A model generated the notes under the pieces. The model ran no database searches. It was not told where the DNA came from and worked only from the letters and a program-made list of their open reading frames with translations. The position numbers and the translations under genes are program-made. 55,029 nucleotides of DNA from an uncultured Alphaproteobacteria bacterium. Lineage in GTDB: Bacteria; Pseudomonadota; Alphaproteobacteria; HIMB59; GCA-002718135. The stretch is taken from positions 1 through 55,029 of the forward strand of contig CACIRR010000003.1 of assembly GCA_902589095.1 (NCBI GenBank), given 5' to 3'. Numbering within the stretch: the stretch's first letter is position 1; each line of letters begins with the position of its first letter. Shown here piece by piece: positions 758 to 52,629 of the stretch.

Positions 758-767
758 ATATAAATAA

Positions 768-2042: not shown

Positions 2043-2048
2043 AAAAAA

Positions 2049-3759: not shown

Positions 3760-3769
3760 AAATAGATAA

Positions 3770-3798
3770 AACTATGAGGTAATGAATACCTCATAGTT
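3770..3798 (-). terminator. Stem-loop after the solute-binding protein gene (partial terminator or mRNA stabiliser)
   Basis: AACTATGAGGTA-atgaa-TACCTCATAGTT, perfect 12-bp inverted repeat. Confidence 0.7.
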
Positions 3799-3808
3799 AT
3801 TTAGATTA

Positions 3809-9704: not shown

Positions 9705-9708
9705 AAAA

Positions 9709-10614: not shown

Positions 10615-10635
10615 ATTAAAATTATATATTAAAAA

Positions 10636-11205: not shown

Positions 11206-11207
11206 CT

Positions 11208-11705: not shown

Positions 11706-11754
11706 TTTGTAAGAGTAATACTTCAATAAAACCATAAGACAAGATTTTATTTTT

Positions 11755-21712: not shown

Positions 21713-21718
21713 ATAAAC

Positions 21719-24769: not shown

Positions 24770-24795
24770 ACTTAATGTATTAGAAAAAAATACAT

Positions 24796-25773: not shown

Positions 25774-25783
25774 TGTTATTAGA

Positions 25784-28239: not shown

Positions 28240-28371
28240 AAATGTCCCCAAATAAGCAAAATTTACCTAGCCTTACATCATACAAATACCTAATCCAAGA
28301 GGAATTCTTGATGTTTTTCTTAATTTCGTAGGAAAAATTGACGCCCTAGTATAGAAGAAAAAAATTCAATT

Positions 28372-29283: not shown

Positions 29284-30185
29284 TGAAACAAAATAAGTTA
29301 ATTGCAGTTGCGTTATTAGCATTAGGTGCCACTTTTTTTGGTTCCTTTATGGGTGCAGGAGTAAAATTACTCTCGGATGATCTTCATCCAATTGTAATTT
29401 GTTTTTATCGATCTTTAATGGGTCTCATTTTAATTACCCCCTTTGTAATAAGAAATAATTTTAAAGCTCTTCACACCCAAAATATGCGTTTGCAAATTTT
29501 TAGAGCCTCCATAAATGTTATATCAATGATCTGCTGGTTTAGTGCAATAGGTATGATGCATTTCGAGAAAGCAACAGCTCTTGGTTTTACAACACCTCTT
29601 TTTACGACAGTACTTGCCGTAATCGTTTTAGGGGAGGTTATTCGTTTCCACCGAACTGCCGCTCTTCTACTGGGTTTTATAGGAATAATAATCATTATAA
29701 GACCAGGTTATGTTCCATTTGAATTTGGAACAGTGTTAATGCTTATCGCATCATTTAGCTTTTCTTTTGTCTTAATTTTTGTAAAAAAATTATCCGCAAC
29801 TGATTCTAGTCTTACTATAATTTTTTATCATTTATTATACATGACACCTGTCTTTTTTATTTTATCCTTGTTCTATTGGGAAAATATAAATTTATATCAA
29901 TTAATTGTTTTCACGTTAATGGGTGCTTCAGGCCTATTATCACACTGGTGTTTAGCTCAAGCATTCAAAATGTCAGATACAACCTTTGTAATGCCATTAC
30001 AATTTACGAAATTAATTTGGGCTTCTTTAATTGGGTTATTTATTTTTGCTGAACAACCAGATATTTGGACATGGGTTGGTGGAGTAATTATTTTTATTTC
30101 AGTCGTCTATATAACGTATCGTGAGGCATTTAAGAAAAAGGGCACACAAAAACCTATACAAGTTGATAGAGCAATTATTAATTAA
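29283..30185 (+). CDS. DMT/EamA-family transporter
   Basis: About 10 hydrophobic helices, FTTPLF...LGE, IIIRPG, FAEQPD; GTG start overlapping the upstream stop. Confidence 0.85.
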   Translation: MKQNKLIAVALLALGATFFGSFMGAGVKLLSDDLHPIVICFYRSLMGLILITPFVIRNNFKALHTQNMRLQIFRASINVISMICWFSAIGMMHFEKATALGFTTPLFTTVLAVIVLGEVIRFHRTAALLLGFIGIIIIIRPGYVPFEFGTVLMLIASFSFSFVLIFVKKLSATDSSLTIIFYHLLYMTPVFFILSLFYWENINLYQLIVFTLMGASGLLSHWCLAQAFKMSDTTFVMPLQFTKLIWASLIGLFIFAEQPDIWTWVGGVIIFISVVYITYREAFKKKGTQKPIQVDRAIIN

Positions 30186-30209
30186 TTTTTTTTATTTAAA
30201 ATTTTAAAA

Positions 30210-30977
30210 CTATTTAGCAGTCCATCCCCCATCAATCACAAGCGAGGAGCCCGTAATCATTGAGGAAGCGTTTGATGCTAAATAAACAACTGCTGTAGCG
30301 ATATCACTATCAGTAGCTAATCTTCCTAGAGGAATATTATCTATCATAGCTTTTTTAAATTTCTTATCTTTAAAGAAATTTTTTACCAATGGCGTTTCTA
30401 CAAAAGTTGGGCAAATGGTATTTACGCGGATATTATTCTTGGCTAGATCTAATGACATCCCCCTTGTTAAACCTTCAATACCAAATTTTGTCATATTATA
30501 TACACTTCTAAGGGGGGCGCCAACTTTACCCAATTGAGAGGATATATTAATGATTGATCCACCCTTAGCTTTTCTATTTTTTGATTTTAACATCACTTTT
30601 GTCGCCATTTGAGCAACATGGAAAGCGGCCTTGATATTTAAATCGACTACATAATCCATATCTTCTTTTTTAATTTTAGTAAAATGGTCTGGTCGATTGG
30701 TTCCGGCATTATTTACAAGAATATCAAGCGAGTTTATTTGTTTAAAAACTGACTTTACTTCTGCGGCATTAGAAACATCACATTCGAAGACAGTACATTT
30801 TCTTTTTAACTTATTGATTTGTTTTTTAACCTTATTTAAATCGTTAAGTGTTCGACTTACAATAATTAAATCTGCTCCTGCTTCAGCAAGAGCCATGGCT
30901 GAAGCCTTTCCAATTCCCTTCCCTGCCCCCGTTACTAAGGCAGTTTTGTTTTTGACTTCAAATTTTTGTAAATACAT
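30210..30977 (-). CDS. hpsO: Short-chain dehydrogenase/reductase, HpsO-like (DHPS 2-dehydrogenase)
   Basis: TGAGKGIG, NNAG, NISSQLGKVG, YNMTK, RVNTICPTFVETPL, DGGWTA; hpsN in the same cluster. The symbol is less certain than the SDR call. Confidence 0.65.
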   Translation of the reverse strand: MYLQKFEVKNKTALVTGAGKGIGKASAMALAEAGADLIIVSRTLNDLNKVKKQINKLKRKCTVFECDVSNAAEVKSVFKQINSLDILVNNAGTNRPDHFTKIKKEDMDYVVDLNIKAAFHVAQMATKVMLKSKNRKAKGGSIINISSQLGKVGAPLRSVYNMTKFGIEGLTRGMSLDLAKNNIRVNTICPTFVETPLVKNFFKDKKFKKAMIDNIPLGRLATDSDIATAVVYLASNASSMITGSSLVIDGGWTAK

Positions 30978-31012
30978 TCTTTCTATATCAAGATTAATTG
31001 ATAGCTTTGCAA

Positions 31013-31669
31013 CTAATTAAAAATTGAGGTGTCTAATTTTAGCGTCATTTTAGAGCAAAAATCATAATTATCCTCTTCATGGAATGATCCAGGAAAAGCG
31101 ATACATGGAATTTTTGCATTATGTGCAGACAAGGCGCTTTCTCTAGAATCTTCAATCGCAATACATTCATTAGATTCAAGGTTGAGTCTTTTAATTGCTT
31201 CGATATAAATATCAGAATGAGGTTTAGGATTTTGTACCATCGTATTGTTACCAACAAAGTCAAAATCCTCTTCGGTAAAATAATTTTTTAATGCCAAAAA
31301 AACCGAGTTAACATTGTCTTTTGTTGTAGACGTTACAAATCCTAATTTTATTTGATTGTTTTTTGCATATTCAATAACATCAATAACGCCTTCCCTTGGC
31401 ATGAGTTTTTCAGTCAATAGTTTTTGATTAAAAATTTCTGTTTTTCTCTCTCTAATTTGTTGAGCTTGAACTGTTGTATTATTTTTTTCTGCAAAATCCT
31501 CTATTCTTTTTGTACCACCAGATTGTTTAAGCAATAATCTATAATCCTCTTGATCCCAATACCAATCTAGTCCAGCTTCTTTAAAAGCTTCATTGAACGA
31601 TTCTCTTTGCAAATCTGATGTTTCAATTAAAGTTCCTATTGAGCCAAATAATATTGCTTTATAATCCAT
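31013..31669 (-). CDS. HAD-IA family hydrolase (CbbY-like)
   Basis: LQRESFNEAF..AGLDWYW, VTST, KPHSDIY, AIEDS; motif I reads FGSIGTL instead of FDxDGTL. Confidence 0.8.
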   Translation of the reverse strand: MDYKAILFGSIGTLIETSDLQRESFNEAFKEAGLDWYWDQEDYRLLLKQSGGTKRIEDFAEKNNTTVQAQQIRERKTEIFNQKLLTEKLMPREGVIDVIEYAKNNQIKLGFVTSTTKDNVNSVFLALKNYFTEEDFDFVGNNTMVQNPKPHSDIYIEAIKRLNLESNECIAIEDSRESALSAHNAKIPCIAFPGSFHEEDNYDFCSKMTLKLDTSIFN

Positions 31670-31711
31670 TTTATCCTTTCAATTTTATGGAACAAGAAAT
31701 CATATAACTTA

Positions 31712-32785
31712 TTATTTTATTGACCCAAGTCCTTTAGAAATATTAATATCTCCAATGTTTCTCGCTTTGTTAAATTCTTTTATTCTATCAAAAACATTAA
31801 CACCTATTTGCTGGTAAACATCGAGAAGGTCTACTAAAACCCAATTCTCTCTGATAAGACCATTTTCTAATCTCCAAAAATCTAAACTCCGCATTTCTAT
31901 AATTTGATTTGATGGAGCAATACCCATCCATCCATCTTGAGAAATTGTAGATCGCATATTTGGCCAACCAGTTTCACAAACATAATCGCCTTCATATATC
32001 CAATGTGTTTGCATATCCTGCAACCCCTCATTTTTTAAACTATCATTTGATGAGCCTCCCTTTCTATCAGGCATTGCACGCAAAAAAGGTATTTGATGCC
32101 AATGGCGAAATCCTTCGATACCCCTTGCTGTGCCAATTCCAACTGGTCCGTACCAATTAAATCTGGGGTGCCAATATTTATCTAAATTCATAACTTGTGG
32201 ATTTGGATTACTAGGGTGTAAAACCATATCTCGAAGCATATTTATTACAATGTCAAAATTTTTTGATCCATCACCTTCTATCTTTAAACCGTCTCCTGTC
32301 ATAGGAGATGGTGTGCATAAAAAAGATCCTAGCTGAGGACTCATTGGCCATGCATTTGCCTGCATCATCAATTCAGGTAGATCCCAAATTGATTGCATTT
32401 CTATAATTTGATTATTTTCTATTTGGAAAAACTCATGATAACGCATATGAACTAAATTTCCTGTTGGCGGAATATCTAAAAATGATTTTAAAAAAGTTCC
32501 CATATAATTGCCCATAGTGCCTAACCAATCTTTACCTTCAGGTGTTGTGCCTGCCATAACAATCATATCTCTTCTTTCAAGATCAGGAATGCTATCTAAA
32601 AGGGGGTTTATACAATTAGTTAACAATTTATCTAAACCATTAAATGTTCCAAAAGGATAGCAGAAATGAAACACCGAATTTTCAGAAAAATATTTAACTA
32701 GAGAATTTTTTATTGAATTTTTGTTAAAATTTTGAGTAGCTAATTGATAATTTTCAAAATTTTTTTTTAACTCTTCAGGTTTCAT
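31712..32785 (-). CDS. Tandem SnoaL/NTF2-like (ester cyclase) protein
   Basis: PDLERRD, FLDIPPTG, WYGPVGIGTARG, WMGIAPS, DFWRLENGLIRENWVLVD; two repeats of the SnoaL pattern. Confidence 0.8.
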   Translation of the reverse strand: MKPEELKKNFENYQLATQNFNKNSIKNSLVKYFSENSVFHFCYPFGTFNGLDKLLTNCINPLLDSIPDLERRDMIVMAGTTPEGKDWLGTMGNYMGTFLKSFLDIPPTGNLVHMRYHEFFQIENNQIIEMQSIWDLPELMMQANAWPMSPQLGSFLCTPSPMTGDGLKIEGDGSKNFDIVINMLRDMVLHPSNPNPQVMNLDKYWHPRFNWYGPVGIGTARGIEGFRHWHQIPFLRAMPDRKGGSSNDSLKNEGLQDMQTHWIYEGDYVCETGWPNMRSTISQDGWMGIAPSNQIIEMRSLDFWRLENGLIRENWVLVDLLDVYQQIGVNVFDRIKEFNKARNIGDINISKGLGSIK

Positions 32786-32790
32786 AATTT

Positions 32791-33672
32791 TTAACCTTTA
32801 ACTGCTCCAGCTGTTAATCCGCTAACAATCTGTCTTTGAAAAAACATTACAAGAAAGAATAATGGAGCAGTTGCTGAAACAACGGCAGCTACAGCATACA
32901 TTACTTTACCTTCTTCCTGTACGGTACCTAAAAAGCTAGCAATTGCTGGGATCATTGTTTCATTTTCATCTGAAAGCAACATAGATGTAACTGTAAAATC
33001 ATTGTAAGCAAGAAGGAAACTAAATAATCCAGTAGTTATTACACCCGGCCACATTATAGGAATGATCACATATCTAAATGCTTGAAATCTATTACAGCCA
33101 TCGCACATAGCGCTTTCATCTAAATCTTTTGGTATATTTAAAAAAAATGAATGTAACATCCACAGAGTAAAAGGCTGATTAATTGCAACAAGTACAATTA
33201 TTGTTGTAGGTAAAATTCCCCAAACATTCCATGCAAAAAAAGGTTGAAGATATCCTGAAACTAAAGTCATATGAGGCATCGCACGAAAAATAAGACCTGC
33301 CATTAAAATCCAGAAGGCATATCGATAAGTAGACCTTGCAAGAGCATAGCCTCCTAAAGTTCCAAATGTAAGAGAAATTAAAACTGTAAAAAATACTACT
33401 ATGCTTGTGTTAATAACAGCGCGCCAAAATTCCTCTTCTATCCAAGAGCCATAATATCCATCAATAGTAAAAAAATTACCTGTTTGTTTTTCAGTATGAA
33501 AGCCAAATATTGCATTTGCCCAGTCAGCTTTTGAAAAAAAATCAGCTTGTACTTTAAAAGACCCCCACAATGTCCAGATAAAAGGAAACATAGCAACAAT
33601 CAACCAGAGAGCCACGAATACAAAAGCAATAATTCGAACTGGGGTTAATTTATTTTCAATTTTTGTATTCAT
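32791..33672 (-). CDS. Carbohydrate ABC transporter permease
   Basis: IPKDLDESAMCDG EAA loop, GLTAGAVKG. Confidence 0.92.
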   Translation of the reverse strand: MNTKIENKLTPVRIIAFVFVALWLIVAMFPFIWTLWGSFKVQADFFSKADWANAIFGFHTEKQTGNFFTIDGYYGSWIEEEFWRAVINTSIVVFFTVLISLTFGTLGGYALARSTYRYAFWILMAGLIFRAMPHMTLVSGYLQPFFAWNVWGILPTTIIVLVAINQPFTLWMLHSFFLNIPKDLDESAMCDGCNRFQAFRYVIIPIMWPGVITTGLFSFLLAYNDFTVTSMLLSDENETMIPAIASFLGTVQEEGKVMYAVAAVVSATAPLFFLVMFFQRQIVSGLTAGAVKG

Positions 33673-33678
33673 AAATTT

Positions 33679-34713
33679 CTAACCCTTATTTTTTTCATTA
33701 AAATCTCTCCATGTTCGAATTAGCACTGGCAAAAGTAAAATTCCTACGCAAAAAATAGTAATCATAGATGTTGCTCCTGCTGCATTATATAGAGGGTAAG
33801 CACTTTCTCGCAAATGATTCCATATTAACCAAGATATTGAGGTAGCGTGGGCTTCTGCTCTAAAACTTATTATTGGTTCAAACACTCTAAAATTATCCAT
33901 TAAAAGTATTAAAGTTATAAAAATAGCAAGTGGCATTAAATGAGGAATAACGACATGGCGTGTTCTTTGAAATTTAGATGCACCATCTATAGTTGCTGCC
34001 TCAATTGTTTCATGAGGAACTGTTTGAAGACCTGCATAAAAAACAATAAAACTAAACGGCATCAAATGCCATATACCATAGACCATCAACATGACCCAGG
34101 TAAGCACAGGTGACGCTTTCAAGCTCAGAGAATTATCATTAAATATTTTTTGGAGTGTGGCTCCAATAACACCATCGCCATCAACCATCCAAAACAATAT
34201 CAATGAACCAACAAGAGGTGTAACTATCATTGGAAGAAGAGATGCAAAAATTGTTGGACCTTTTAACAACTTAGGAAGATTATTGACTCCAAGAGCAACT
34301 AAAAAACCAAGAAATAAAACAAACGGGGTAACTACAAAGGTGTAAGTAAGAGTAAAGCTAAGCGCTCTATATAAGGGGTAATTATATATTTTTTTTACAA
34401 AAGCTATAAAACTATCCGAGCTATTCCAAGCCTCTCCTATTTCATCAAATGCAAAATGCATTCTGTTTGAATACGTTTTAAATCCATTAAATTTACCAAG
34501 AGGTGCTTTTTCTTTTAACTTCGCAGAAGCTTCAGTATCCACAGATGTTGTTGTCTCACATCCAAAAGGATCACAATTTTCTGAAACAATTATTACTTGT
34601 TTATGTTCTATATGAAGGGATTGAATAAAAACAGAAACTATAGGTATTGCAATAAATAAAAACATTACACTTAATGAAGGAAGGGTAAATAATAAGAATG
34701 TGCTGTGCTTCAT
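33679..34713 (-). CDS. Carbohydrate ABC transporter permease
   Basis: AGLQTVPHETIEAATIDGAS EAA loop, hydrophobic helices. Confidence 0.92.
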   Translation of the reverse strand: MKHSTFLLFTLPSLSVMFLFIAIPIVSVFIQSLHIEHKQVIIVSENCDPFGCETTTSVDTEASAKLKEKAPLGKFNGFKTYSNRMHFAFDEIGEAWNSSDSFIAFVKKIYNYPLYRALSFTLTYTFVVTPFVLFLGFLVALGVNNLPKLLKGPTIFASLLPMIVTPLVGSLILFWMVDGDGVIGATLQKIFNDNSLSLKASPVLTWVMLMVYGIWHLMPFSFIVFYAGLQTVPHETIEAATIDGASKFQRTRHVVIPHLMPLAIFITLILLMDNFRVFEPIISFRAEAHATSISWLIWNHLRESAYPLYNAAGATSMITIFCVGILLLPVLIRTWRDFNEKNKG

Positions 34714-34743
34714 TATGCTATTTTAAATTACATAGAAAGATAT

Positions 34744-34771
34744 AAGGGGTTTTCAAATTTGAAAACCCCTT
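34744..34771. terminator. Perfect 28-bp palindrome / stem-loop after the solute-binding protein gene
   Basis: AAGGGGTTTTCAAATTTGAAAACCCCTT. Confidence 0.7.
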
Positions 34772-34793
34772 TTTACTGATTTATATTTATTGA

Positions 34794-36035
34794 CTACAGA
34801 TAACCTGCGTCTTTAGCAGCTGTTTCATAAACAGCCTCTACATCACTAAGTGCTTGTTCAGCACTTTCTGATCCTTTTAAAAAATCAACTAGCTCTGCAC
34901 CTAATGCATTGTGCAATAATCCCATTTGAGCAAACATTGGATAAGATTTAGCGCCGCCTTGAGCAGTTGCAGACACTCCTGCTGCAGCTGGACCAGGTTT
35001 AAAACCATCAATTAACCAAATTGCATCATCATTATTAGCAGCAACCATTTCTGAAGTCATACCACTTACAAGTGCTGCAAACGTTGCTTCTGCTTCACTG
35101 TCAGACACGTTGGTTGCTATAGTTATTCCATCCCACCATAAAGTTGCTCCTGGTATTGAACCACCAGTAACAGTTGGAGCTGCAGATAGAACAGTATTTG
35201 AAGTCACCTCAGCTGAAGAACCTTCATTATCTAGTATAACTCCTCCACGAGAACCCCACATAAAGCCAATTGCAGCTTGACCAGCTTCCCATAATCCTTG
35301 CGTATCATCAGATGCCTGTGTTAAATGATCAGGATGAGCATACTCAACTAGAGCTTTCATTGTTTCTAGAGCCGCAATACCTTTAGCGTTATTAATAGAT
35401 GCTTCTGCACTACCTTGCTTAAAGAATTCTCCACCATGTGCTAAGTATATAGTATTAAATACTTCTCCAACATTCCATCCTACTTTAAGATTCATTACAA
35501 GTGGATGCTCCATGATACCAGCTGAACGTATTTTTTCAGCAGCAGAAATTATTTCATCATAAGTTGCTGGCATTCCATCAACTCCAGCTTTATCTAAAAT
35601 ATCTGTTCTATAATACATGTGCTGAGAATTAGCCATGAATGCTATAGCCATTATTTTACCATCAATAGTTATAAGTTGATTAGATTTTAAGTTGCCACCA
35701 TATTTTTCAACTAGGTCATTTAATGGTCTAACTAGCCCATCATTCATTAACTGAACAAGGGTAGAGTTAGCTACAATCACTGATGTATACTCTGCTGGAT
35801 CTGGTGTTTGAGCAGCGTTCATTATTTGGCGCGCTTCAGTAGTATGATTTCGAGTGAATTCAGAAGCAGATCCTGCACAATTGCTTTCAGCAGAATTTGC
35901 TATTGCGTGAATTGCTGGAAAATCACTTGCTAAAATTCGGATGGATTGTCCATTAGGACCACAATCAGCCGCAAACAAAGATGAGCTGAAGAATAGTGCT
36001 GTTAATCCACCTAAAATTAATTTTTTTAAAAACAT
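34794..36035 (-). CDS. Sugar ABC transporter solute-binding protein (family 1)
   Basis: Signal peptide, GLVRPLNDLV, YYRTDILDKAG, TLWWDG; GGAGG RBS. Confidence 0.9.
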   Translation of the reverse strand: MFLKKLILGGLTALFFSSSLFAADCGPNGQSIRILASDFPAIHAIANSAESNCAGSASEFTRNHTTEARQIMNAAQTPDPAEYTSVIVANSTLVQLMNDGLVRPLNDLVEKYGGNLKSNQLITIDGKIMAIAFMANSQHMYYRTDILDKAGVDGMPATYDEIISAAEKIRSAGIMEHPLVMNLKVGWNVGEVFNTIYLAHGGEFFKQGSAEASINNAKGIAALETMKALVEYAHPDHLTQASDDTQGLWEAGQAAIGFMWGSRGGVILDNEGSSAEVTSNTVLSAAPTVTGGSIPGATLWWDGITIATNVSDSEAEATFAALVSGMTSEMVAANNDDAIWLIDGFKPGPAAAGVSATAQGGAKSYPMFAQMGLLHNALGAELVDFLKGSESAEQALSDVEAVYETAAKDAGYL

Positions 36036-36106
36036 GTTTCCTCCATATATTACGTATAAAAAACAATTTTTTTAAGCGTATGTATATTACTATAATTATT
36101 AAAATG

Positions 36107-36145
36107 ATATTGCATTACTTTGAATTAATATGCAATATAATGAAT
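36107..36145. promoter_or_regulatory. Candidate operator region for the LacI-family regulator
   Basis: Inverted repeat ATATTGCAT-N14-ATGCAATAT (36107-36138); TG(C/A)A(T/A) at 36111, 36121, 36131 and 36141; lies between divergent genes. Confidence 0.45.
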
Positions 36146-36162
36146 AAATTAATAGTGGATAA

Positions 36163-37167
36163 ATGAACATTCAGAAAGCAAAATTACCAACATCAAGTAG
36201 TGTGGCAAAGCTAGCAGGTGTGTCACAATCGGCTGTTTCACGATGCTTTACAAAAGGAGCAAGCATTTCTAATAGAACAAAATTGAGAGTTATCGAAGCA
36301 GCAAAAAAACTAGGATATAAACCACAGTCCTTTTCAACTAATTCTCTGAGTTTAGATGAGGGAGGTTTAGTTGGTGTTATATTACCATATATTACGAATA
36401 GATATTATCCTGAAGTGCTTATCGAATTACATGAAGCTCTAAGAGTATCAGGGTATAGAATTTTATTAATTACTACTGATGATGGTGAGGAATTAGATGA
36501 TAATTTAATTCAACCCTACTTAAAAGAAAAGTTAGTTGCGATTGTTTCAGCAACAAAGCCTACTGATGCGTTTGTAGAAAACTGTTTAGCCAAACAAATT
36601 CAACTTATTGCATTTAATAGAAATTGGAAAATACCTACACTGAGTTCTGTAGCTTGTGATCATAAGTATGGTGGAGAAGCGGCGGCAGAACATTTCGTTA
36701 ATAATGGGCATACTAAAATAGGAATGGTTGAAGGACCAATTGGATCATTTGTAAGTGAAGAAAGATGTAAAGGTTTCAAAAACTATTTAAATAATTTAGA
36801 CAAAATTAAACTGTTTCATGAAAGAGGAAATTTTACATATGAAGGAGGTTTAGATTCAGCAAAAAAACTTTTAAAAAATAATATTACAGCATTGTTTTGT
36901 GCTGATGATATTATGGCTTTTGGTTGTGTTGATTATATTAAAAAAAATACAAAACTTAATATACCAGAAGAGATAGAGGTAATTGGATATGATGACATAT
37001 CTTCAGCAAATTGGCATTCATATAATTTAACAACAATTAGACAACCAGTAAGACAAATGTCTAAACTTGTAACCCAAATAATAGATGATAACATTAAGGA
37101 TCCAGAGTTAGAGCCTATCAATCATTTAATTCAGGGTAAATTTATTTATCGAAATACAACTAGATAG
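36163..37167 (+). CDS. LacI-family transcriptional regulator (HpsR-like context)
   Basis: HTH TSSSVAKLAGVSQSAVSRCF, LGYKP, FCADDIMAFG, VIGYDD, LTTIRQP. Confidence 0.93.
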   Translation: MNIQKAKLPTSSSVAKLAGVSQSAVSRCFTKGASISNRTKLRVIEAAKKLGYKPQSFSTNSLSLDEGGLVGVILPYITNRYYPEVLIELHEALRVSGYRILLITTDDGEELDDNLIQPYLKEKLVAIVSATKPTDAFVENCLAKQIQLIAFNRNWKIPTLSSVACDHKYGGEAAAEHFVNNGHTKIGMVEGPIGSFVSEERCKGFKNYLNNLDKIKLFHERGNFTYEGGLDSAKKLLKNNITALFCADDIMAFGCVDYIKKNTKLNIPEEIEVIGYDDISSANWHSYNLTTIRQPVRQMSKLVTQIIDDNIKDPELEPINHLIQGKFIYRNTTR

Positions 37168-37170
37168 AAA

Positions 37171-37863
37171 TTGGGTAAAGTAATTTTAATCCCTGGATAC
37201 ATGTGTAACAAAAACATTTGGGATGCACAAATATCTTTTCTAAAAAAAAAATATAGTGTTTCCATTCCTTCTCTAAAGAATATTGCTACAGTTGATGAAG
37301 CTGTACAAAAAATCATAAACAAAAATAAAAAAAAAATTTCTGTTATTGGTTTTTCAATGGGAGGATTTATTGCAATAAAATTAGCAATCGAGTATCCGGA
37401 AATATTAGATAAATTAGTTTTAATAGGAACTAATGCAAGAGATATTTCACAAAAAAGAAAGTTGCTTTTAGAAAAGTCATTAACAACCTTAAATAAAAAT
37501 AACTTTGCAAAATTATTTTATCAAAAAAACTATAGTTCCTATTTTTCTGATAAAGATTTGAAAAATACATCATACCAAAATACTGTTTACTCAATGGCTA
37601 AACAATTAGGGTATAAGACTTTTTTAGACCAAACGAATTTGATTCTAAAAAGACCTAATCAATTAAATAAGCTAAATAAGATTGTATCAAAAACTCTTAT
37701 TGTTCGTGGCAAAAACGATAAACTATCCTCTAATATTATGAACAAGGAATTAAATAAGAAAATAAAATATTCAGTTTATACAGAAATTAAAAATTCTTCT
37801 CATTTTGTAATGCTAGAGAAGCCAAAAACTTTTAATAAAATTATTACTAATTTTTTATTTTAA
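37171..37863 (+). CDS. Alpha/beta-fold hydrolase
   Basis: IPGYMC, nucleophile elbow GFSMG, GKND, SHFVMLEKP; TTG start. Confidence 0.85.
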   Translation: MGKVILIPGYMCNKNIWDAQISFLKKKYSVSIPSLKNIATVDEAVQKIINKNKKKISVIGFSMGGFIAIKLAIEYPEILDKLVLIGTNARDISQKRKLLLEKSLTTLNKNNFAKLFYQKNYSSYFSDKDLKNTSYQNTVYSMAKQLGYKTFLDQTNLILKRPNQLNKLNKIVSKTLIVRGKNDKLSSNIMNKELNKKIKYSVYTEIKNSSHFVMLEKPKTFNKIITNFLF

Positions 37864-37864
37864 A

Positions 37865-38995
37865 TCAAATTGTTTTAGATGCTATTTGAGTTCCATTAAC
37901 TAACGAAATTAGTTTCTCATAACAAATTTTTTCATCAACTTTTCCAAATCCAGCAAAAGTACTAAAACCACAATCTGTACCAGCCATAATTTGCTCCTTT
38001 GGTACAAAAGTAGAAAATTGTTTTAACCGATCAGCAACAACTTCAGGGTGTTCAACAAAATTTGAAGTAGAGTCAATAACACCAGGCACAATAACTTTAT
38101 CTTGTGGCAATTTAATCTTTTCAAAAACTTTCCATTCATGTGCATGTCTTGGATTAGAAGACTCAATTAATAAATATTTACTTTTTGCCTTAAGTACTAT
38201 TGGTAAAATTTTTTCCAAACCAATATCAAAAGTATGAGGTCCTTCATAATTTCCCCAGCAGATATGCATTCTAATTTTGTCTTCTGAAACTGATGCCAGT
38301 GAAAGATTAAGAGCTTCAATTTGTTTTTCTGCTCGCAGCAAAAAACTTTTTTCATCTAATTCTTTAAAATTCATATGCCTTGCTAGGGCTAAATCTGGAC
38401 AATCAACTTGCAAGAATAAATTATTAGAAGTAATTTGTTGATATTCTTCTGCCATAATCACACTAAGCTTACTTAGGTACTCGTCATCATTTTTGTAAAA
38501 TTTATTAGGTAAAAAAACATTTATGACTCCTGGTGAGGCAGCATTCATAAAGCCCTTAGTATGATTATTAGCACTTAATGCAGAAGATAGATTATTTATA
38601 TCTTTTAAAAGATCATCGTTTTTTTTAATTGAGAGTTCTCCAGTACAACAGGGTCGGGTATAAGTAGGTGTTCCACCACTTTTAGCAATTTTATCTTTAT
38701 ATTCAGGAAATGCATCTAAGTCAGCTGGCGCTCTTCTTTCACTTTCACCAGAAAAACCATTAATTCTATCTTTCACATATGTAGCATAACTGATTTTACT
38801 CATTTCACCATCACTGACAAAATCAATACCTATATCAAGTTGTTTTTTGACAATGTCACTTACATTTTGTTTTACAACATCATCAAATTCATTTTCACTA
38901 AAACTATCTCCCTTATCTTTTGCAAAAAGTAATTCTGATAAAGCTTTAGAACGAGGTAAACTTCCTACATGTGTTGTTAAAATTTTCGTGTTCAA
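37865..38995 (-). CDS. MetE catalytic-domain-only Zn enzyme (methionine synthase II / epoxyalkane:CoM transferase-like)
   Basis: TTHVGSLPR, SDGEMSK, LQVDCPDLA, HICWGNYEGPH, NPRHAHEW, HPEVVA, TDCGF. Confidence 0.85.
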   Translation of the reverse strand: MNTKILTTHVGSLPRSKALSELLFAKDKGDSFSENEFDDVVKQNVSDIVKKQLDIGIDFVSDGEMSKISYATYVKDRINGFSGESERRAPADLDAFPEYKDKIAKSGGTPTYTRPCCTGELSIKKNDDLLKDINNLSSALSANNHTKGFMNAASPGVINVFLPNKFYKNDDEYLSKLSVIMAEEYQQITSNNLFLQVDCPDLALARHMNFKELDEKSFLLRAEKQIEALNLSLASVSEDKIRMHICWGNYEGPHTFDIGLEKILPIVLKAKSKYLLIESSNPRHAHEWKVFEKIKLPQDKVIVPGVIDSTSNFVEHPEVVADRLKQFSTFVPKEQIMAGTDCGFSTFAGFGKVDEKICYEKLISLVNGTQIASKTI

Positions 38996-39002
38996 TCTTT
39001 AG

Positions 39003-39974
39003 CTATCCTGTTTTCATCAAAATTTGTTTCCAAATTTCAGTTTCATCAAATAAAATCCATTCATTTTTAATTCCTCGTGGTCCAAATTCAACATGTGATA
39101 TAGCCATAACATGAACTGCTGCTTGACTAGGTACTCCAAAATATCCCGAACCCGAATGAACACCATTAAGTGACCATCTAATAGCTGCCTTTCTGTACTG
39201 ATTTGGTTCTTCTAAATAGCTAACATGATCAATTGAAAATGTTGCATCAGGAAATGATGAAAATAGAGAAGTCCAAAAAGTTTTTACTTCTTCAACTCCG
39301 TAAGCTTTCAATCCGCCTGGTAATTCTTGATTTATTGCTCTATCATATGTTTTATCAACTATATTAATATCTTTATTAAATATAGATTTTAGGACTTCTG
39401 CATATTCATAACCTGAATTTTTTTCCGGTAAATTTAATTGTGAATATTTCAAATCCAAAGGCGTATTTTTGTTAAAAGGAACTGCACAATTTTCAACACC
39501 CCCTTGATTATCAATTATTTGTTTTGCATATTTTTTTGGATCTAAATTAAGTTGTCTTACGATTGCGCCCTGATCTCTAACAAGCCATTCATCATACACT
39601 TGATTATCCTTGCATGCACAATCTGCAATTACTCTATAAATAAGTTTTTTTCCTGTTGCTTTTCCATAAACCCCATCATTCAAGTGGGTTGCTCTAGTTA
39701 AAATTCGGTGCGAAGATAAATACCCATCATGTTCATTACCTATCCATATGACATCTTCACCTAAAAGTTGACGGTCAGGAAATTCTTCTAAAGTTGCATA
39801 AGTTGCTTTCACAACTGCATCAGGTCCATACACAACTCCAGCAGGGGACCTAACTGGAATTCCTTTTGCATAATATTCTCTTATTGACTCAACATCCTTG
39901 TCTTCCCAAATTTGATATGTAATTTTTAGTATATAATCGGGTAGATCTCTAAATTTTTGATCAAAACCCTGCAT
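39003..39974 (-). CDS. Tandem SnoaL/NTF2-like (ester cyclase) protein
   Basis: EFPDRQLLGEDVIW, ATH..GVYGKATG, DEWLVRDQG; second repeat SFPDA, RWSLNGVH.G.GYFG, EWILFDE. Confidence 0.8.
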   Translation of the reverse strand: MQGFDQKFRDLPDYILKITYQIWEDKDVESIREYYAKGIPVRSPAGVVYGPDAVVKATYATLEEFPDRQLLGEDVIWIGNEHDGYLSSHRILTRATHLNDGVYGKATGKKLIYRVIADCACKDNQVYDEWLVRDQGAIVRQLNLDPKKYAKQIIDNQGGVENCAVPFNKNTPLDLKYSQLNLPEKNSGYEYAEVLKSIFNKDINIVDKTYDRAINQELPGGLKAYGVEEVKTFWTSLFSSFPDATFSIDHVSYLEEPNQYRKAAIRWSLNGVHSGSGYFGVPSQAAVHVMAISHVEFGPRGIKNEWILFDETEIWKQILMKTG

Positions 39975-39977
39975 CTT

Positions 39978-40949
39978 TTAATTTTTTTGGCGCACTATAT
40001 AAATGCTACCCTTATCGCTACTTATATTTTTAAGGCTTCTTGTAGAGTTTTTTGGAGGGGAGAAGGCATCTCTAGAGCCAATTAACACCTTTTTATCATT
40101 ACATGTAATTTCCCATTCTCCCTCCAAACATAAATAAACTTCAGATTTTGATGAGGTGTAAGAATGGATATGAGCATTATTACCTTCAAGAAGAGTAAGT
40201 CCAAATCCAGTTTTATGACTAATGTATGGTTTAAATTCTTTATTATGAATAGTGAAATCATCTAAATAATTTAAAATAGAATTTGAATTATAATGTTCGT
40301 CATCTAGAAAATAATTTTTTTGATCTGCGTAGCGAATTACAAATTTTTCAATTTCTTCAGAAGTGTAATGATCAAATTGTGTTAATTCATTATCTGTGAT
40401 TGGCTCTATTGCTTTTTTACCATCGGGTATTTGATTTTTTTCTAAATCAATAAGAGAGTTATCATTTAGAAGAACCATTCCAGTTTCTTTTGCTTTTTTT
40501 AACAATGAAGGAGTCCATGTAATTACTCCCGGATCATTTTCTCCTAACACTACAAACATTAATGCTTGTTGATCACTAACATTTTGAAATCCTCTAAACA
40601 TATTAGTAGGAAATGAAGCGACATCTCCTTTATGTAAAATAACCTCACCCTCTTTTCCATCTGGTCCCCAATAAAAACGCCACGAACCAGAAAAGATAAT
40701 AAATACCTCAGCTGTTGTATGACTATGAAGCCCAGAACCATTCATCGGTGCAGCACTTACTGCCCCAATATTAAACCCATGCTCCTCAGCAATTTTTACA
40801 TTTTGTTTAGAATCTTCACTTACGCCAGGACCCACTACTGAGTAATTCAATCTATCTTGATGTCCTTTTAATTTACCCTCAACAAAAGGAACCTTACTTG
40901 GTATTAGATCATTAAATCTCGCCAGACGAGTTTCTATATTTATTGACAT
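39978..40949 (-). CDS. Bicupin-domain protein
   Basis: GSGLHSHTTAEVFIIFSGSW and GDVASFPTNMFRGFQN; degenerate second cupin EVYLCLEGEW...DAFSPP. Confidence 0.8.
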   Translation of the reverse strand: MSINIETRLARFNDLIPSKVPFVEGKLKGHQDRLNYSVVGPGVSEDSKQNVKIAEEHGFNIGAVSAAPMNGSGLHSHTTAEVFIIFSGSWRFYWGPDGKEGEVILHKGDVASFPTNMFRGFQNVSDQQALMFVVLGENDPGVITWTPSLLKKAKETGMVLLNDNSLIDLEKNQIPDGKKAIEPITDNELTQFDHYTSEEIEKFVIRYADQKNYFLDDEHYNSNSILNYLDDFTIHNKEFKPYISHKTGFGLTLLEGNNAHIHSYTSSKSEVYLCLEGEWEITCNDKKVLIGSRDAFSPPKNSTRSLKNISSDKGSIYIVRQKN

Positions 40950-41057
40950 TTTAAGAAAAATTATATTTTATGCATTTTTAATGAATATTATTCAAAATAT
41001 TGAATAAATCAATTAAATATTGAGCCTAAACTGTGAGTAACTAAAACTAAGTAAATT

Positions 41058-42149
41058 ATGACAGAAATTGAAAATTTTAATACTGGAATAAAAAAAGAAG
41101 GAAGCACTGAAGTAATTAATTTAAATCCAAAGATAAATATAGCAAATAAAAAAAAAATCAGAATTCTTCTAAAAAATATAGCTGAATCCAATTCAGAAAA
41201 TATTAATAATAATATTAGTGATGCGTATCATGATGATGCAGAAATAAGAACCTTCCATCCACTTAATGACTTAAAAGGCATTTCTGAAATAACAGAAAAA
41301 TTATGGAAACCGCTTTTAAATGCATTTCCTGATCTTGAGAGAAGGGATAACCTAATTCTTGGCGGTTCTTTTCAAGACTCAATTTTTGTTTCAACAATAG
41401 CTCATTTAACTGGGACTTTTGTTAATCCATGGCTTAATGTTCCTGCTCATGGCAAAACAATACATTTAAGAATATGTGAAGCGCATCAAATTAAAGATAA
41501 TAAAATCATTCAATCACATATTTTGATTGATACTCTAGATTTTATTCGTCAGGCAGGATTTTGGCCAATAAATAAATCATTAGGAGTAGAAGGAATGTGG
41601 CCTGGTCCTATAACCGGTGATGGTACAACATTTGAAAATATGGATGATGAGTTGTCCATCAATTCGATGAATCAAGCTTTAACAATGCAGAGAAGTTTAA
41701 ATATAAAACCAGAAACAGATCCTGGATCAACGCATGAATACGTTAGAGATAAATTGCTAAATCATCCTCAAAAAGAATTCTGGCATCCTAAAATGATGTG
41801 GTACGGACCTTGCGGTATTGGTACAGCAAGAGGTTTAAAAGGATTTGTTGATCATCATCAATTACCTTTTAGGTTTACATTTAAAGAGAGAGATTACTGG
41901 AAAATTGGTCATTATATAGAAATAGCTGATGGTAATTATTCAATGACATCAGGCTGGCACAGTATTGAGTGTATACATGGTTCTAATGAGTGGCTAGGCT
42001 ACAAAGGTACTGGTAAAGCTGTCACAATGAGGGTTATGGATTTCTATTTACATCATGAAGGTTTGATACGAGAAAACTGGGTCCCAATAGATATAGCACA
42101 TATCTTAAATCAAATAGGCATAGATGTATTTGATCTAATAAAAAAATAA
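41058..42149 (+). CDS. Tandem SnoaL/NTF2-like (ester cyclase) protein, paralogue of 31712-32785
   Basis: AFPDLERRD, WHPKMMWYGPCGIGTARG, HQLPF, MRVMDFY..EGLIRENWVPID. Confidence 0.8.
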   Translation: MTEIENFNTGIKKEGSTEVINLNPKINIANKKKIRILLKNIAESNSENINNNISDAYHDDAEIRTFHPLNDLKGISEITEKLWKPLLNAFPDLERRDNLILGGSFQDSIFVSTIAHLTGTFVNPWLNVPAHGKTIHLRICEAHQIKDNKIIQSHILIDTLDFIRQAGFWPINKSLGVEGMWPGPITGDGTTFENMDDELSINSMNQALTMQRSLNIKPETDPGSTHEYVRDKLLNHPQKEFWHPKMMWYGPCGIGTARGLKGFVDHHQLPFRFTFKERDYWKIGHYIEIADGNYSMTSGWHSIECIHGSNEWLGYKGTGKAVTMRVMDFYLHHEGLIRENWVPIDIAHILNQIGIDVFDLIKK

Positions 42150-42210
42150 CAGATTAAATAGATATTATCAGTTTATTATATATACGTAGAAAATTAATTG
42201 AGGGGATAAA

Positions 42211-43497
42211 ATGACTGTTTCATATATCAAAAAAGCTGACAAAACTGCTTCTTCCGATGAAGTAGAAACAAGACAACGAGTTCAAGAAGTTCTTAAAGAA
42301 ATTGAAACAAAAAGAGATGAGGGCATTAGAGAAATCTCTCGAAAATTTGATAATTATGAAGGTGATGTTATTGTTTCTCAAGAAAAAATTGAAGAAGTTA
42401 TAAAATCATTAGATCAAAAAGTAAAAGATGATGTGCAGTTCTCCTATGATAGAGTTCGCAGTTTTGCAGAGCATCAACTAAAACATCTTAATAATGATTT
42501 TGAAGTTGAATTATCTCCAGGTCTTTTTGCTGGTCAAAAATTAATTCCTGTGAACAGTGTTGGTTGTTATGTTCCAGGGGGCCGGTATAATAATATTGCC
42601 TCCGCTGTCATGAGTATCACGACAGCAAAAGTTGCGGGTGTTAAAAATGTAATTGCCGCGAGTCCTCCAAAAGATGAAAATGGGGCTAATCCTATAATTA
42701 TTTACACTGCAAATTTATGTGGTGCTGATGTTATTATGAACTGTGGTGGAATTGGAGCAATTGGAGCTTTTGCTTATGGATGTTTTGGCAATCCAGAAGT
42801 TGATATGATCGTTGGTCCAGGAAACCAGTATGTAGCAGAAGCAAAAAGAATTTTATACGGAAAAGTTGGAATAGATTTATTTGCTGGGCCTACAGAAATT
42901 GGTATTATCGCAGATCATACTGCTGATAAAGAAATGATCGCTGTTGATCTTGTTGGTCAAGCAGAACACGGTCCAAATTCTCCAGCGTGGCTGTATACAA
43001 CTGATAAAGAATTGTGTGATTATGTTATGAAGCGAGTACCAGAATTAATTGCTGAACTCCCCGAAACATCGAGAAATAATGCTGATGCTGCTTGGCGTGA
43101 TTATGGTGAGGTTGTGTTGTGTGATACTAATGAAGAATTATGCCAGGTAAGTGATGAATATGCACCTGAGCATTTAGAAGTACAAGCTGAAAAATTGGAT
43201 TGGTGGTTAGATAAATTAAAAAACTATGGATCATTATTTTTAGGAGAAGAAACTACAGTTGCTTACGGCGATAAATGTTCTGGAACTAACCACATTCTTC
43301 CAACCAAAGGAGCTGCAAAATATACTGGTGGTTTGTTTGTAGGTAAATTTATCAAAACAGTTACCTTTCAGCGCATGACAAAAGAATCGAATAAAGAAGT
43401 TGGTGCTGCAGCAGCTAGAATTTCACGATTAGAAGGAATGGAAGCACATGCACGAACAGGTGATGCCCGTTTAAGAAAATATGGTTTTCAAAATTAA
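42211..43497 (+). CDS. hpsN: Sulfopropanediol (DHPS) 3-dehydrogenase, histidinol-dehydrogenase family
   Basis: GCYVPGGRY..IAS, VGPGNQYVAEAKR, QAEHG.NSP, AWRDYGEV, APEHL, YGSLFLGEETTVAYGDK, ARISRLEGMEAHAR (HpsN pattern rather than HisD); GAGGGG RBS. Confidence 0.85.
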   Translation: MTVSYIKKADKTASSDEVETRQRVQEVLKEIETKRDEGIREISRKFDNYEGDVIVSQEKIEEVIKSLDQKVKDDVQFSYDRVRSFAEHQLKHLNNDFEVELSPGLFAGQKLIPVNSVGCYVPGGRYNNIASAVMSITTAKVAGVKNVIAASPPKDENGANPIIIYTANLCGADVIMNCGGIGAIGAFAYGCFGNPEVDMIVGPGNQYVAEAKRILYGKVGIDLFAGPTEIGIIADHTADKEMIAVDLVGQAEHGPNSPAWLYTTDKELCDYVMKRVPELIAELPETSRNNADAAWRDYGEVVLCDTNEELCQVSDEYAPEHLEVQAEKLDWWLDKLKNYGSLFLGEETTVAYGDKCSGTNHILPTKGAAKYTGGLFVGKFIKTVTFQRMTKESNKEVGAAAARISRLEGMEAHARTGDARLRKYGFQN

Positions 43498-46267: not shown

Positions 46268-46270
46268 AAT

Positions 46271-52571: not shown

Positions 52572-52590
52572 TCTTGTGTTCTACAGGAAT

Positions 52591-52618
52591 TAAAGAGCGG
52601 AAACTAGTCCGCTCTTTA
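52591..52618 (-). terminator. Stem-loop after dctP
   Basis: TAAAGAGCGGA-aactag-TCCGCTCTTTA. Confidence 0.7.
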
Positions 52619-52629
52619 TATATTTTAAA

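Follow-up and report, generated by a model that had tools for sequence, protein, structure and literature searches.

Loci for the catabolism of 2,3-dihydroxypropane-1-sulfonate (DHPS), such as hpsNOP of Cupriavidus pinatubonensis and Ruegeria pomeroyi, are the closest described systems to the gene cluster analyzed in this study. The cluster occupies positions 30210-43497 of a stretch of 55,029 nucleotides (hereafter the window), which is contig C3 (CACIRR010000003.1) of a 1.13-Mb genome, 66.6% complete and with about 31% GC, from an uncultured alphaproteobacterium. According to the available portion of the description of HpsN from C. pinatubonensis (CpHpsN), HpsN proteins are defined by the motif G-R-Y-A/S-H, where the related HisD has G-S-A-P-L; His126, the key recognition residue, binds the sulfonate together with Lys353, which hydrogen-bonds it and is replaced by Tyr in HisD (PMC11382572). 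In common with hpsNOP, the cluster encodes a short-chain dehydrogenase/reductase (SDR) and an HpsN-clade dehydrogenase that retains the Asp-Lys pair and the catalytic Glu/His; genes for sulfopyruvate decarboxylase and phosphate acetyltransferase (Pta), found elsewhere in the window, are a further likeness. However, hpsNOP includes an HpsP-type alcohol dehydrogenase of the zinc-dependent medium-chain dehydrogenase/reductase class and an importer of the tripartite ATP-independent periplasmic (TRAP) or major facilitator superfamily type, whereas Pfam finds no such alcohol dehydrogenase in 30210-43497, where the importer is a CUT1-type ATP-binding cassette (ABC) system and no TRAP gene is present. 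Moreover, His126 is Asn in the window protein, the SDR is not close to RpHpsO (8WWF), and eight further enzyme genes have no counterpart in the DHPS loci as these are described in the accessible parts of PMC11131964, PMC11382572 and PMC13335735.

The leading reading is that the region is a LacI-controlled catabolic cassette and not a DHPS locus with accessory genes. Its families, namely a CUT1 importer, two to four tandem-SnoaL proteins, a bicupin, a MetE-like protein, an SDR, a hydrolase and an HpsN-family dehydrogenase, are shown here to recur as a unit across Alphaproteobacteria, and we regard them as one integrated cassette with an obligatory HpsN-family step, at a probability of roughly 0.85.

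A cassette that recurs with an HpsN-family gene

A scan for SnoB, one of the three tandem-SnoaL proteins of the cluster (SnoA, SnoB and SnoC), with one genome per species yielded 58 loci, in which the core genes were scored by tblastn. The loci come from the window's own lineage (81-100% identity), Pelagibacteraceae (about 50%), three Pseudomonadota metagenome-assembled genomes and one Acidimicrobiia metagenome-assembled genome; the cultured carriers among the Pelagibacteraceae are HTCC8051, HIMB2201, HIMB2250, HIMB1444, HIMB1409 and Uisw_092. SnoC, the bicupin, SnoB and the MetE-like protein are encoded together in 49 of the 58 loci. Six of the nine incomplete loci are cut by contig ends (L016, L023, L034, L057, L058, L059), and L022 and L051 have another SnoaL type in the place of SnoC, and in L054 the MetE-like gene is missing. 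Most loci also hold the importer, and those of Pelagibacter have an ABC ATPase gene beside SnoC. The smallest version, from Acidimicrobiia (L054), consists of an importer with its ATPase, LacI, the bicupin and three SnoaL genes. With so many loci sharing all four core genes (49 of 58), the gene arrangement is not due to chance, and the cassette is real and widespread.

An HpsN-family gene is present in 48 of the 58 loci. Of the ten loci without it, L003, L012 and L053 end at SnoC, L016 and L034 are short and without SnoC, three have a flank of only 2.1-5.7 kb (L023, L022, L036), and L042 and L054 look like true local absences. The partner has the motif GRYAH in 29 loci, almost all titled Pelagibacteraceae, and in the 28 of them that also hold SnoC the two genes are 1.06-6.7 kb apart and on opposite strands. 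A divergent subfamily with the motif GKFPM, named HpsN2 here, is the partner in 15 loci, where it follows a SnoaL gene of the same strand after 9-150 bp; a GRYNN or GRNNY type takes the same position in three loci, and the partner in L020 is fragmentary. As side observations on the Pelagibacteraceae type, hpsN is 6.3-6.7 kb from SnoC in L024-L026, L035, L038, L039, L043-L046, L049, L050, L052, L056 and L060, and in the one such locus that was annotated (L026) the intervening DNA encodes a GH63/mannosylglycerate-hydrolase-like protein (PF22422, 277 bits) and a further ABC system of the sugar type. HTCC8051 has an epoxide-hydrolase-type gene (EHN and Abhydrolase_1; L028:3250-4440) beside pta and hpsN, near the cassette.

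The same association was found at the level of genomes. In 81 genomes of the window's own order, each at least 80% complete, SnoB was detected in 53 and an HpsN-family gene, always as a single match, in 55; both occur in 53, HpsN alone in two (G019, G036), SnoB alone in none and neither in 26. In 50 of these 53 genomes the two genes share a contig, with about 3 kb between them; in G012, G026 and G023 they are on different contigs, with the SnoB match near a contig end. A class-wide sample of 401 genomes contains SnoB in 24 and an HpsN-family gene in 50, with both in 23 of the 24; the exception (G177) has its SnoB match on a short, fragmentary contig. For 151 Pelagibacteraceae genomes, the family of HTCC8051, HpsN was counted in 97 (including the unpublished G601) and SnoB in 29, all of which have both. 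HpsN is independent of the cassette, because it is found in 97 and SnoB in 29 of these genomes, and the cassette was almost never found without an HpsN-family gene. Thus the co-conservation of SnoaL, bicupin and MetE-like genes with an HpsN-family gene, on which the initial annotation of this DNA had staked its proposal of a new system, was borne out by the loci and by all three genome samples. Note that related genomes are not independent, and the co-occurrence counts overstate the significance of the association, a point to be set against our interpretation.

The same counts bear on whether two unrelated neighbors are being observed, with a sugar-type catabolic cluster of a variable island adjoining a normal DHPS dehydrogenase gene and no pathway common to both. 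SAR11 genomes are highly syntenic, and in Pelagibacteraceae hpsN is more than three times as frequent as SnoB, lies on the opposite strand at the distances given above, and is separated from SnoC by the ABC ATPase gene and, in some strains, by a second ABC system and a GH63-like hydrolase; the window region is itself a mosaic of sulfonate and sulfate genes. All of this would be expected of mere neighbors. However, SnoB occurs alone in 0 of 81 genomes of the own order and in one of 24 SnoB-positive genomes of the class sample, HpsN2 lies inside one-strand operons of distant lineages with differing gene orders, and in the window clade and in L051/L055 the HpsN-family gene follows a SnoaL gene on the same strand by 9-150 bp. 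We consider an accidental neighborhood quite improbable.

The one-strand operons were recognized by mapping the flanks, about 9 kb to either side, of 20 HpsN-family hits out of the 50 in the class-wide sample, mostly on long contigs and with 58-76% identity; the open reading frame (ORF) maps of high-GC loci are crude, with many ORFs unannotated, and genes missing from them are soft absences. GKFPM-type HpsN2 was found in ten of the 20 mapped loci, and a tandem-SnoaL gene lies beside it in eight of the ten (not in L069 and L082). Operons with SDR, hydrolase and HpsN2 on one strand are carried by unrelated genomes of 42-59% GC (L063, L064, L066, L067, L068). In L063 (42% GC), ATPase, substrate-binding protein (SBP), two permeases, a half-size SnoaL protein, HpsN2, a SnoA-type protein, SDR, SnoB, bicupin, MetE-like protein and hydrolase are all encoded on the same strand, and SnoA homologues (47-52% identity) adjoin HpsN2 in L051, L055, L063 and L066-L068. 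The other ten mapped loci contain GK/RYP(M/L/I)-type relatives, with SDR in five, LacI in four and SnoaL in one. Separately, a second HpsN2-like branch (GK/RYP-M/L, 58-63% identical) was seen beside SDR and/or LacI genes in L072, L075 and L077-L079, without SnoaL genes except in L075; it may represent a smaller pathway for a related substrate.

The HisD-family protein of the window scores 524.9 bits against the sulfopropanediol 3-dehydrogenase 8v35 and 247.6 bits against the best HisD in the PDB search, and a separate HisD-like gene lies on contig C4 of the same genome. Its Glu320/His321 and Asp354/Lys355 align with the catalytic Glu318/His319 and Asp352/Lys353 of CpHpsN. By these alignments the protein is a member of the HpsN clade; we call it HpsN-clade and not HpsN because GRYNN replaces the GRYAH motif. 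The label hpsN given initially is therefore right for the clade and too specific for the protein, which lacks the signature His126. HpsN2, the usual partner inside the cassette operon, scores higher against the solved HpsN 8v35 (395.5 bits) than against HisD (258.3 bits), shares 34% identity with the HisD of the same genome, and keeps the Asp-Lys pair with the equivalent of Lys353 but not the sulfonate-binding His. In the phylogenetic tree the GKFPM group is monophyletic (100/99 support), and the window type is sister to the GRYAH HpsN group of Pelagibacter (100/99 support), apart from HpsN2. The simplest reading of this branching is that, in the lineage of the window, HpsN2 was displaced from its operon slot by an HpsN-clade gene. 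Caution is needed with HisD-like 'hpsN' matches in SAR11-type genomes, which should not all be counted as DHPS oxidation, because many are HpsN2 or lack the sulfonate-binding His.

Comparison among close relatives revealed a mosaic. In L004-L015 the core is 96-100% identical, but HpsN2 stands in the place of the HpsN-clade gene, the haloacid dehalogenase (HAD) family protein is only 59-62% and the SDR 74-75% identical, and the adjacent CysNC/CysD/CysQ region is 55-79% identical. L013 has window-type enzymes (81-97% identical) but another importer (SBP 37-38%, permeases 42-55%). Such divergence at its edges points to recombination at the edges of the cassette. Aside from this, the SnoB match contains one in-frame TAA in each of seven of the 29 SnoB-positive Pelagibacteraceae genomes (G595, G607, G615, G626, G589, G609, G600), which may mark the edge of a gene or a pseudogene that these genomes share.

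Cassette proteins and the proposed substrate

SnoA, SnoB and SnoC have the SnoaL/NTF2 fold according to Pfam (SnoaL, SnoaL_2). SnoA obtained just an 18-bit match in the PDB sequence search. The SnoB family comprises 195 representatives (50%-identity clusters) at E<=1e-30, and the AlphaFold2 model of SnoB has a predicted local distance difference test score (pLDDT) of 96.4. Its single domains match the folds of IdmH, SnoaL, AclR and limonene epoxide hydrolase in Foldseek at template modeling scores (TM) of 0.7-0.8, while the best matches of the whole chain, to Lsd19 and MonBI/BII, are weak (TM 0.31-0.41). SnoaL, AclR and IdmH are polyketide-tailoring enzymes, and SnoaL-type cyclases, a cupin and a methyltransferase-like enzyme could together belong to a biosynthetic cluster for a small natural product. 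Nevertheless, the genes are accompanied by a binding-protein-dependent importer and a LacI-type regulator, Pfam detects no polyketide synthase (PKS), non-ribosomal peptide synthetase or other scaffold-forming enzyme, and the carriers have streamlined genomes of 1.1-1.6 Mb. A biosynthetic role is accordingly very improbable.

Complete cupin proteins have metal motif 1 and 2 patterns, which were used as the yardstick for the bicupin. Its N-terminal cupin has His75, His77 and Glu81, with an invariant Arg119 at the position of the fourth His in motif 2; the C-terminal cupin has neither a metal motif nor conserved ligands. No PDB sequence match was obtained, and the family is large, with 1383 clusters (90% identity) at E<=1e-5. 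The AlphaFold2 model (pLDDT 89.5) shares its fold with quercetinase, oxalate decarboxylase and MncA at Foldseek probability 1.00, TM 0.45-0.57 and 10-15% identity.

The MetE-like protein has invariant His244-x-Cys246 and Cys342, which correspond in alignment to the H-x-C and DCG of full-length MetE; its GSLP and DGE motifs, which we take to contact homocysteine, are aligned with MetE as well. It is 50-76% identical across lineages and fails every curated cut-off (best NCBIfam match 100.8 bits, cut-off 406). The SDR passes a single NCBIfam model, a 'glucose 1-dehydrogenase' subfamily, at 218.6 bits (cut-off 215). It was initially annotated as hpsO and expected to be co-conserved as such. It is a conserved member of the cassette, with homologues of 38-48% identity in the cassettes of distant Alphaproteobacteria, but PDB matches make it a generic SDR: the best is 4j2h (152 bits), followed by FabG-, KduD- and gluconate-type SDRs, and 8WWF, deposited as RpHpsO (PMC11131964, as far as available), is not among the best 60 of its 91 matches, so that the label hpsO is unsupported. 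The HAD protein stays under the cut-offs of all specific NCBIfam models; it is found in SAR11-type cassettes and was not detected on the crude ORF maps of the large-genome operons L063-L068. The small hydrolase has the nucleophile elbow G-F-S-M-G at residues 60-64, and its best NCBIfam matches, all far under their cut-offs, are of the PcaD/MenH/BioH type (enol-lactonase, MenH); in L063-L065 and L082 the gene after the MetE-like or bicupin gene encodes a homologue (19-27% identity). Methionine salvage, with a HAD enolase-phosphatase and an acireductone dioxygenase cupin, was considered and dropped, as there were no such NCBIfam matches. Five enzyme families of the cassette are without a characterized close relative: tandem SnoaL, bicupin, short MetE-like protein, HpsN2 and small hydrolase.

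The importer is assigned to the CUT1 type by its SBP_bac_1 binding protein and two BPD_transp_1 permeases (Pfam). The best PDB matches of the SBP, 44-55 bits, are binders of chitin oligosaccharides, maltose and sulfoquinovosyl-glycerol (SmoF). The SBP of a 57%-GC alphaproteobacterium (L067) is 77% identical to it, and the permeases are 52-78% identical to cassette permeases of other lineages. Orthology to the SAR11 glucose binder SAR11_0769, as presented in the available part of PMC11485210, was tried and rejected, there being no strong PDB match. No MalK-type ATPase gene was found among the ORFs, by Pfam, in 30210-43497 or in the whole window; relatives retain an ATPase gene in their cassettes, and contigs C26 and C13 of the window genome encode ATPases 54-56% identical to that of the Pelagibacter cassette. 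Since SAR11 binds DHPS by the TRAP protein SAR11_0864 (PMC13335735, accessible portion), the ABC importer of the cassette differs from the known DHPS route.

We propose, tentatively and at odds somewhat below even, that the solute is a methyl-bearing organosulfonate, sugar-like or cyclic, and that its C3 sulfonate fragment would be oxidized to sulfolactate. A polar solute would be imported, and the SDR would oxidize a secondary alcohol. The NTF2-fold proteins could carry out cofactor-free acid/base steps such as isomerization, dehydration, retro-aldol cleavage or hydrolytic opening; the N-terminal metal site of the bicupin would serve an isomerase, lyase or dioxygenase step, and the hydrolase would cut an ester, lactone or C-C bond. 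Because the MetE-like enzyme keeps the zinc ligands and the GSLP and DGE motifs, it may use a thiol such as homocysteine as the acceptor for a methyl or other alkyl group of the substrate. The HpsN-family enzyme would finally oxidize a 2-hydroxy (or 2-amino) primary alcohol or aldehyde to the acid, so that a C3 fragment of the DHPS or sulfolactaldehyde type would give sulfolactate, for further conversion by ComDE and Pta encoded elsewhere in the window. A sulfonate is suggested because HpsN-clade enzymes partner the cassette in two settings, as the neighbor in Pelagibacteraceae and in the HpsN2 slot in the window, because HpsN2 is closer to HpsN than to HisD and keeps the sulfonate-binding Lys, and because CpHpsN also takes sulfolactaldehyde (PMC11382572, accessible portion). 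It is suggested as well by the presence of ComDE, Pta and aminotransferase/alanine dehydrogenase genes in the window and of Xsc above the cut-off in four of the five complete operon-bearing genomes, two of which also have ComE.

Several observations weigh against a sulfonate. The enzymatic steps are those we infer from folds and motifs. The window protein has G124-R-Y-N-N128 aligned to G-R-Y-A-H of CpHpsN, with Asn for the signature His126, and where the motif is readable (GKFPM, GRYNN, GRNNY) none of the operon-linked or directly downstream HpsN-family genes has this His. No desulfonating enzyme was recognized in any mapped version of the cassette, with many ORFs there being unannotated. The complete carrier G093 has neither Xsc nor ComE. 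The window genome has no Xsc above the cut-off (best 398 bits, cut-off 676), a miss that at 66.6% completeness is no evidence of absence. L054 has no HpsN-family or MetE-like gene within 10 kb. Among the larger genomes, an additional RraA-like aldolase (PF03737) follows the hydrolase or bicupin in L064 and L066, and L067 has an additional methyltransferase and VOC-fold protein; the aldolase and the VOC-fold protein fit ring cleavage.

The missing sulfonate-binding His, the lack of a recognized desulfonation gene in the mapped cassettes, the added genes of L064, L066 and L067 and the case of G093 also speak for a second reading, in which the same cassette acts on a polar, methylated cyclic substrate that is free of sulfur and bears a hydroxymethyl group. 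Examples would be a methylated cyclitol or sugar, or a cyclohexenone of the gadusol or mycosporine kind. The HpsN-family enzyme would then oxidize a hydroxymethyl, adjacent to a hydroxyl, to a carboxylate. The MetE-like enzyme would demethylate the substrate, with homocysteine as the acceptor, ring opening would fall to the bicupin, and the end of the degradation to the hydrolase, with the RraA-like aldolase where present, the sulfonate genes nearby being incidental. The nearest folds of the bicupin, which are ring- or C-C-cleaving enzymes, and the enol-lactonase and MenH matches of the hydrolase agree with such a route. In the same direction points the published SAR11 'HpsN' PU1002_02401, with a Km of 106 mM for R-DHPS and an efficiency on DHPS only 2.2-fold above that on histidinol (PMC11131964, Table 1, from the available part); it may be a HisD and not an orthologue of this HpsN type. 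On the other side stand the HpsN-clade partners in Pelagibacteraceae, which include GRYAH enzymes, and in the window lineage, as well as the Lys of HpsN2 that binds the sulfonate in CpHpsN; no paper was found on a mycosporine- or gadusol-type pathway of this kind, and the substrate is a guess. We regard the sulfur-free substrate as nearly as likely as the sulfonate.

Returning to the organosulfonate, the initial annotation had put forward an undescribed upstream pathway that feeds a C3 sulfonate to the HpsN step. The part of this that stands is one undescribed system with a functional tie to an HpsN-type dehydrogenase; DHPS or another C3 product is what we infer from the enzymes. A still bolder version is that the cassette is an undescribed, largely cofactor-free route that mineralizes an abundant phytoplankton-derived methyl-bearing sulfosugar or cyclic organosulfonate in SAR11-type and further marine Alphaproteobacteria, in which tandem NTF2-fold proteins and the bicupin would replace the kinase, aldolase and transaldolase of known sulfoglycolysis, the methyl group would pass to methionine by the MetE-like enzyme, and HpsN2 would yield sulfolactate. 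In this detailed form the proposal is unlikely.

Gene layout and sulfur-gene surroundings

The ORFs and the Pfam and NCBIfam matches in 30210-43497 agree with the earlier listing of genes and domains in four transcription units (Table 1). The gaps within the units are 3-80 bp, with 61 bp separating SnoC from the HisD-family gene that follows it on the same strand, and the divergent intergenic regions measure 127 bp (SBP/LacI) and 108 bp (bicupin/SnoC). Contigs from RNA libraries, in four runs from four studies, cover 27-30 of 30 bins of 30000-43700; one of 2991 nt covers the MetE-like, SnoB and bicupin genes, and one of 2269 nt covers SnoA and both permeases, while no bridging contig from SnoC to the HpsN-clade gene was found among the contigs listed. 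As these data are contigs only, their depth cannot rank genes and they prove neither transcription nor operon structure; many are only 90-95% alike to the window and come from relatives.

Table 1. Genes and other features of the window, with the transcription unit for members of the cassette.
Feature	Position	Strand	Unit	Match or content
Sulfatase region	68-5065			sulfatase gene, FGE-type maturase gene, second CUT1 ABC importer
Sulfoglycolysis-like block	5306-12804			LacD-type aldolase, SftI-like protein, GFO/IDH/MocA oxidoreductase, D-2-hydroxyacid dehydrogenase, PfkB kinase, ComDE sulfopyruvate decarboxylase, aldose 1-epimerase
Second sulfatase gene, then another short MetE-like gene	20183-22771			Meth_synt_2, 139.9 bits (MetE-like)
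Aminotransferase module	23909-30185			DUF1989, arginase-family, alanine dehydrogenase, omega-aminotransferase, phosphate acetyltransferase (Pta), EamA transporter
SDR oxidoreductase, 255 aa	30210..30977	-	1	Pfam adh_short_C2, 204 bits
HAD-family hydrolase, beta-phosphoglucomutase-like, 218 aa	31013..31669	-	1	Pfam HAD_2, 97.5 bits
SnoA, tandem SnoaL/NTF2, 357 aa	31712..32785	-	1	two SnoaL-type stretches (Pfam)
Two ABC permease genes	32791-33672 and 33679-34713	-	1	Pfam BPD_transp_1 (both)
Hairpin, 12 pairs (5 G-C), followed by T-rich tail	34744..34771	-		between SBP and permease genes
CUT1-type periplasmic SBP, 413 aa	34794..36035	-	1	Pfam SBP_bac_1 and SBP_bac_8
Divergent intergenic region SBP/LacI	36036..36162			9+9 bp inverted repeat at 36107-36115 and 36130-36138
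LacI-family regulator, 334 aa	36163..37167	+	2	Pfam LacI HTH and Peripla_BP_3
Small alpha/beta-hydrolase, 230 aa	37171..37863	+	2	Pfam Abhydrolase_1
Short MetE-like Zn protein, 376 aa	37865..38995	-	3	Pfam Meth_synt_2, 58.7 bits
SnoB, tandem SnoaL/NTF2, 323 aa	39003..39974	-	3	Pfam SnoaL (twice)
Bicupin, 323 aa	39978..40949	-	3	Pfam Cupin_2 (twice)
Divergent intergenic region bicupin/SnoC	40950..41057
SnoC, tandem SnoaL/NTF2, 363 aa	41058..42149	+	4	Pfam SnoaL and SnoaL_2
HpsN-clade dehydrogenase (HisD family), predicted NAD-dependent four-electron, 428 aa	42211..43497	+	4	PF00815, 449.8 bits
CysNC (fused), CysD, CysQ-like phosphatase	43494-47065			convergent with HpsN-clade gene, 4-bp overlap
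TRAP system	50629-53727			7 kb from cassette; binding protein best matches ketoacid binder, 108 bits

The LacI protein is under the cut-off of all specific NCBIfam models, and LacI genes are also present in L054, L065, L067 and L068. An operator role of the inverted repeat between the SBP and LacI genes is unsupported: its 9-base half-site is at chance frequency in the window (48 matches, 46.6 expected). The promoter scan gave 50 sites, fewer than the 65.0 in shuffled sequences, and is therefore uninformative; eight terminator-like sites were counted against 6.2 in shuffles. The hairpin between the SBP and permease genes may be an attenuator.

The window is rich in genes for sulfur compounds according to Pfam and NCBIfam. 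In the sulfoglycolysis-like block, the only NCBIfam match of the SftI-like protein is sulfoquinovose isomerase SftI (300 bits, cut-off 700), and the ComDE subunits score 155 bits (alpha, cut-off 148) and 218 bits (beta, cut-off 221.5). The omega-aminotransferase next to the cassette matches the AptA model with 587 bits (cut-off 500), and its module presumably resembles taurine or guanidino-sulfonate catabolism. On the other side of the cassette, CysNC, CysD and CysQ are sulfate activation genes in a very small SAR11-like genome.

Comparison with known systems

No description of this gene combination was found in the literature, and no match to a known non-sulfur pathway, which the initial annotation had named as a ground for rejecting its proposal, was found by PDB, Foldseek, ESM Atlas or literature searches. 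The ESM Atlas structure search returned uncharacterized look-alikes only, and the Foldseek neighbors are generic bicupin and NTF2 proteins, none of which names a substrate.

The significance of the cassette lies first in its hosts. SAR11 and its relatives dominate the surface-ocean bacterioplankton with very small genomes, and since a cassette of about 13 kb is kept in such genomes, its substrate matters in the sea. Once the substrate is identified, the marine carbon cycle, and possibly also those of sulfur and methyl groups, would gain a further flux. Its identity would give a function to thousands of metagenomic proteins, among them those of the 1383 bicupin clusters and 195 SnoB representatives. 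The cultured carriers make the question directly testable.

Sulfoglycolysis of the sulfo-SMO type, with ABC import and the sulfoquinovosyl-glycerol binder SmoF, likewise has a CUT1 binder and permeases by catabolic enzymes, and a C3 sulfonate would be its expected product, as proposed for the cassette. However, SmoF, though among the best matches of the SBP (43.9 bits), is no better than maltose or chitin binders, and the cassette lacks sulfoquinovosidase, sulfoquinovose isomerase, kinase, aldolase, transaldolase, transketolase and monooxygenase by Pfam and NCBIfam; the block at 5306-12804 is closer to classical sulfoglycolysis than the cassette is. HpsN-family substrates extend beyond DHPS, as the HpsN of Bilophila prefers L-cysteinolate (PMC12814064, available portion), but no CuyA-, CuyB- or CuyC-type genes of the D-cysteinolate pathway (CuyC, HpsN, CuyB, CuyA) were seen in the cassette by Pfam.

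The protocatechuate 4,5-cleavage and gallate pathways use a ring-cleaving dioxygenase, a hydrolase and an RraA-like HMG/CHA aldolase. The likeness consists of the RraA-like aldolase in some versions of the cassette, the PcaD/MenH-type hydrolase and the dioxygenase-like bicupin; the specific enzymes of these pathways are unmatched in the cassette, whose importer is of the sugar type.

At the level of single proteins, SnoaL-type polyketide cyclases have one domain of about 140 aa and sit in polyketide clusters, whereas those of the cassette have two domains in tandem (323-363 aa), and Pfam shows no PKS genes in their vicinity. Among solved proteins and complexes, two NTF2-like units are paired, as in SnoB, only in the polyether epoxide hydrolases Lsd19 and MonBI/BII, but these differ from SnoB in domain arrangement, with an rmsd (root mean square deviation) of about 16 A and 9-12% identity, and the cassette has no polyether context. 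With the bicupin dioxygenases and decarboxylases (quercetinase, gentisate/salicylate dioxygenase, oxalate decarboxylase) the cassette bicupin has its fold in common, at the TM values given above. Cobalamin-independent methionine synthase, MetE, has about 750 aa in two domains, and the MetE-like protein, of 376 aa, corresponds to the catalytic domain alone, with the C-terminal zinc ligands His-x-Cys...Cys of MetE being kept. Compared with these systems, the cassette is an undescribed variant of the substrate-inducible catabolic operon, with several enzyme subfamilies of no known function, in very abundant marine bacteria.

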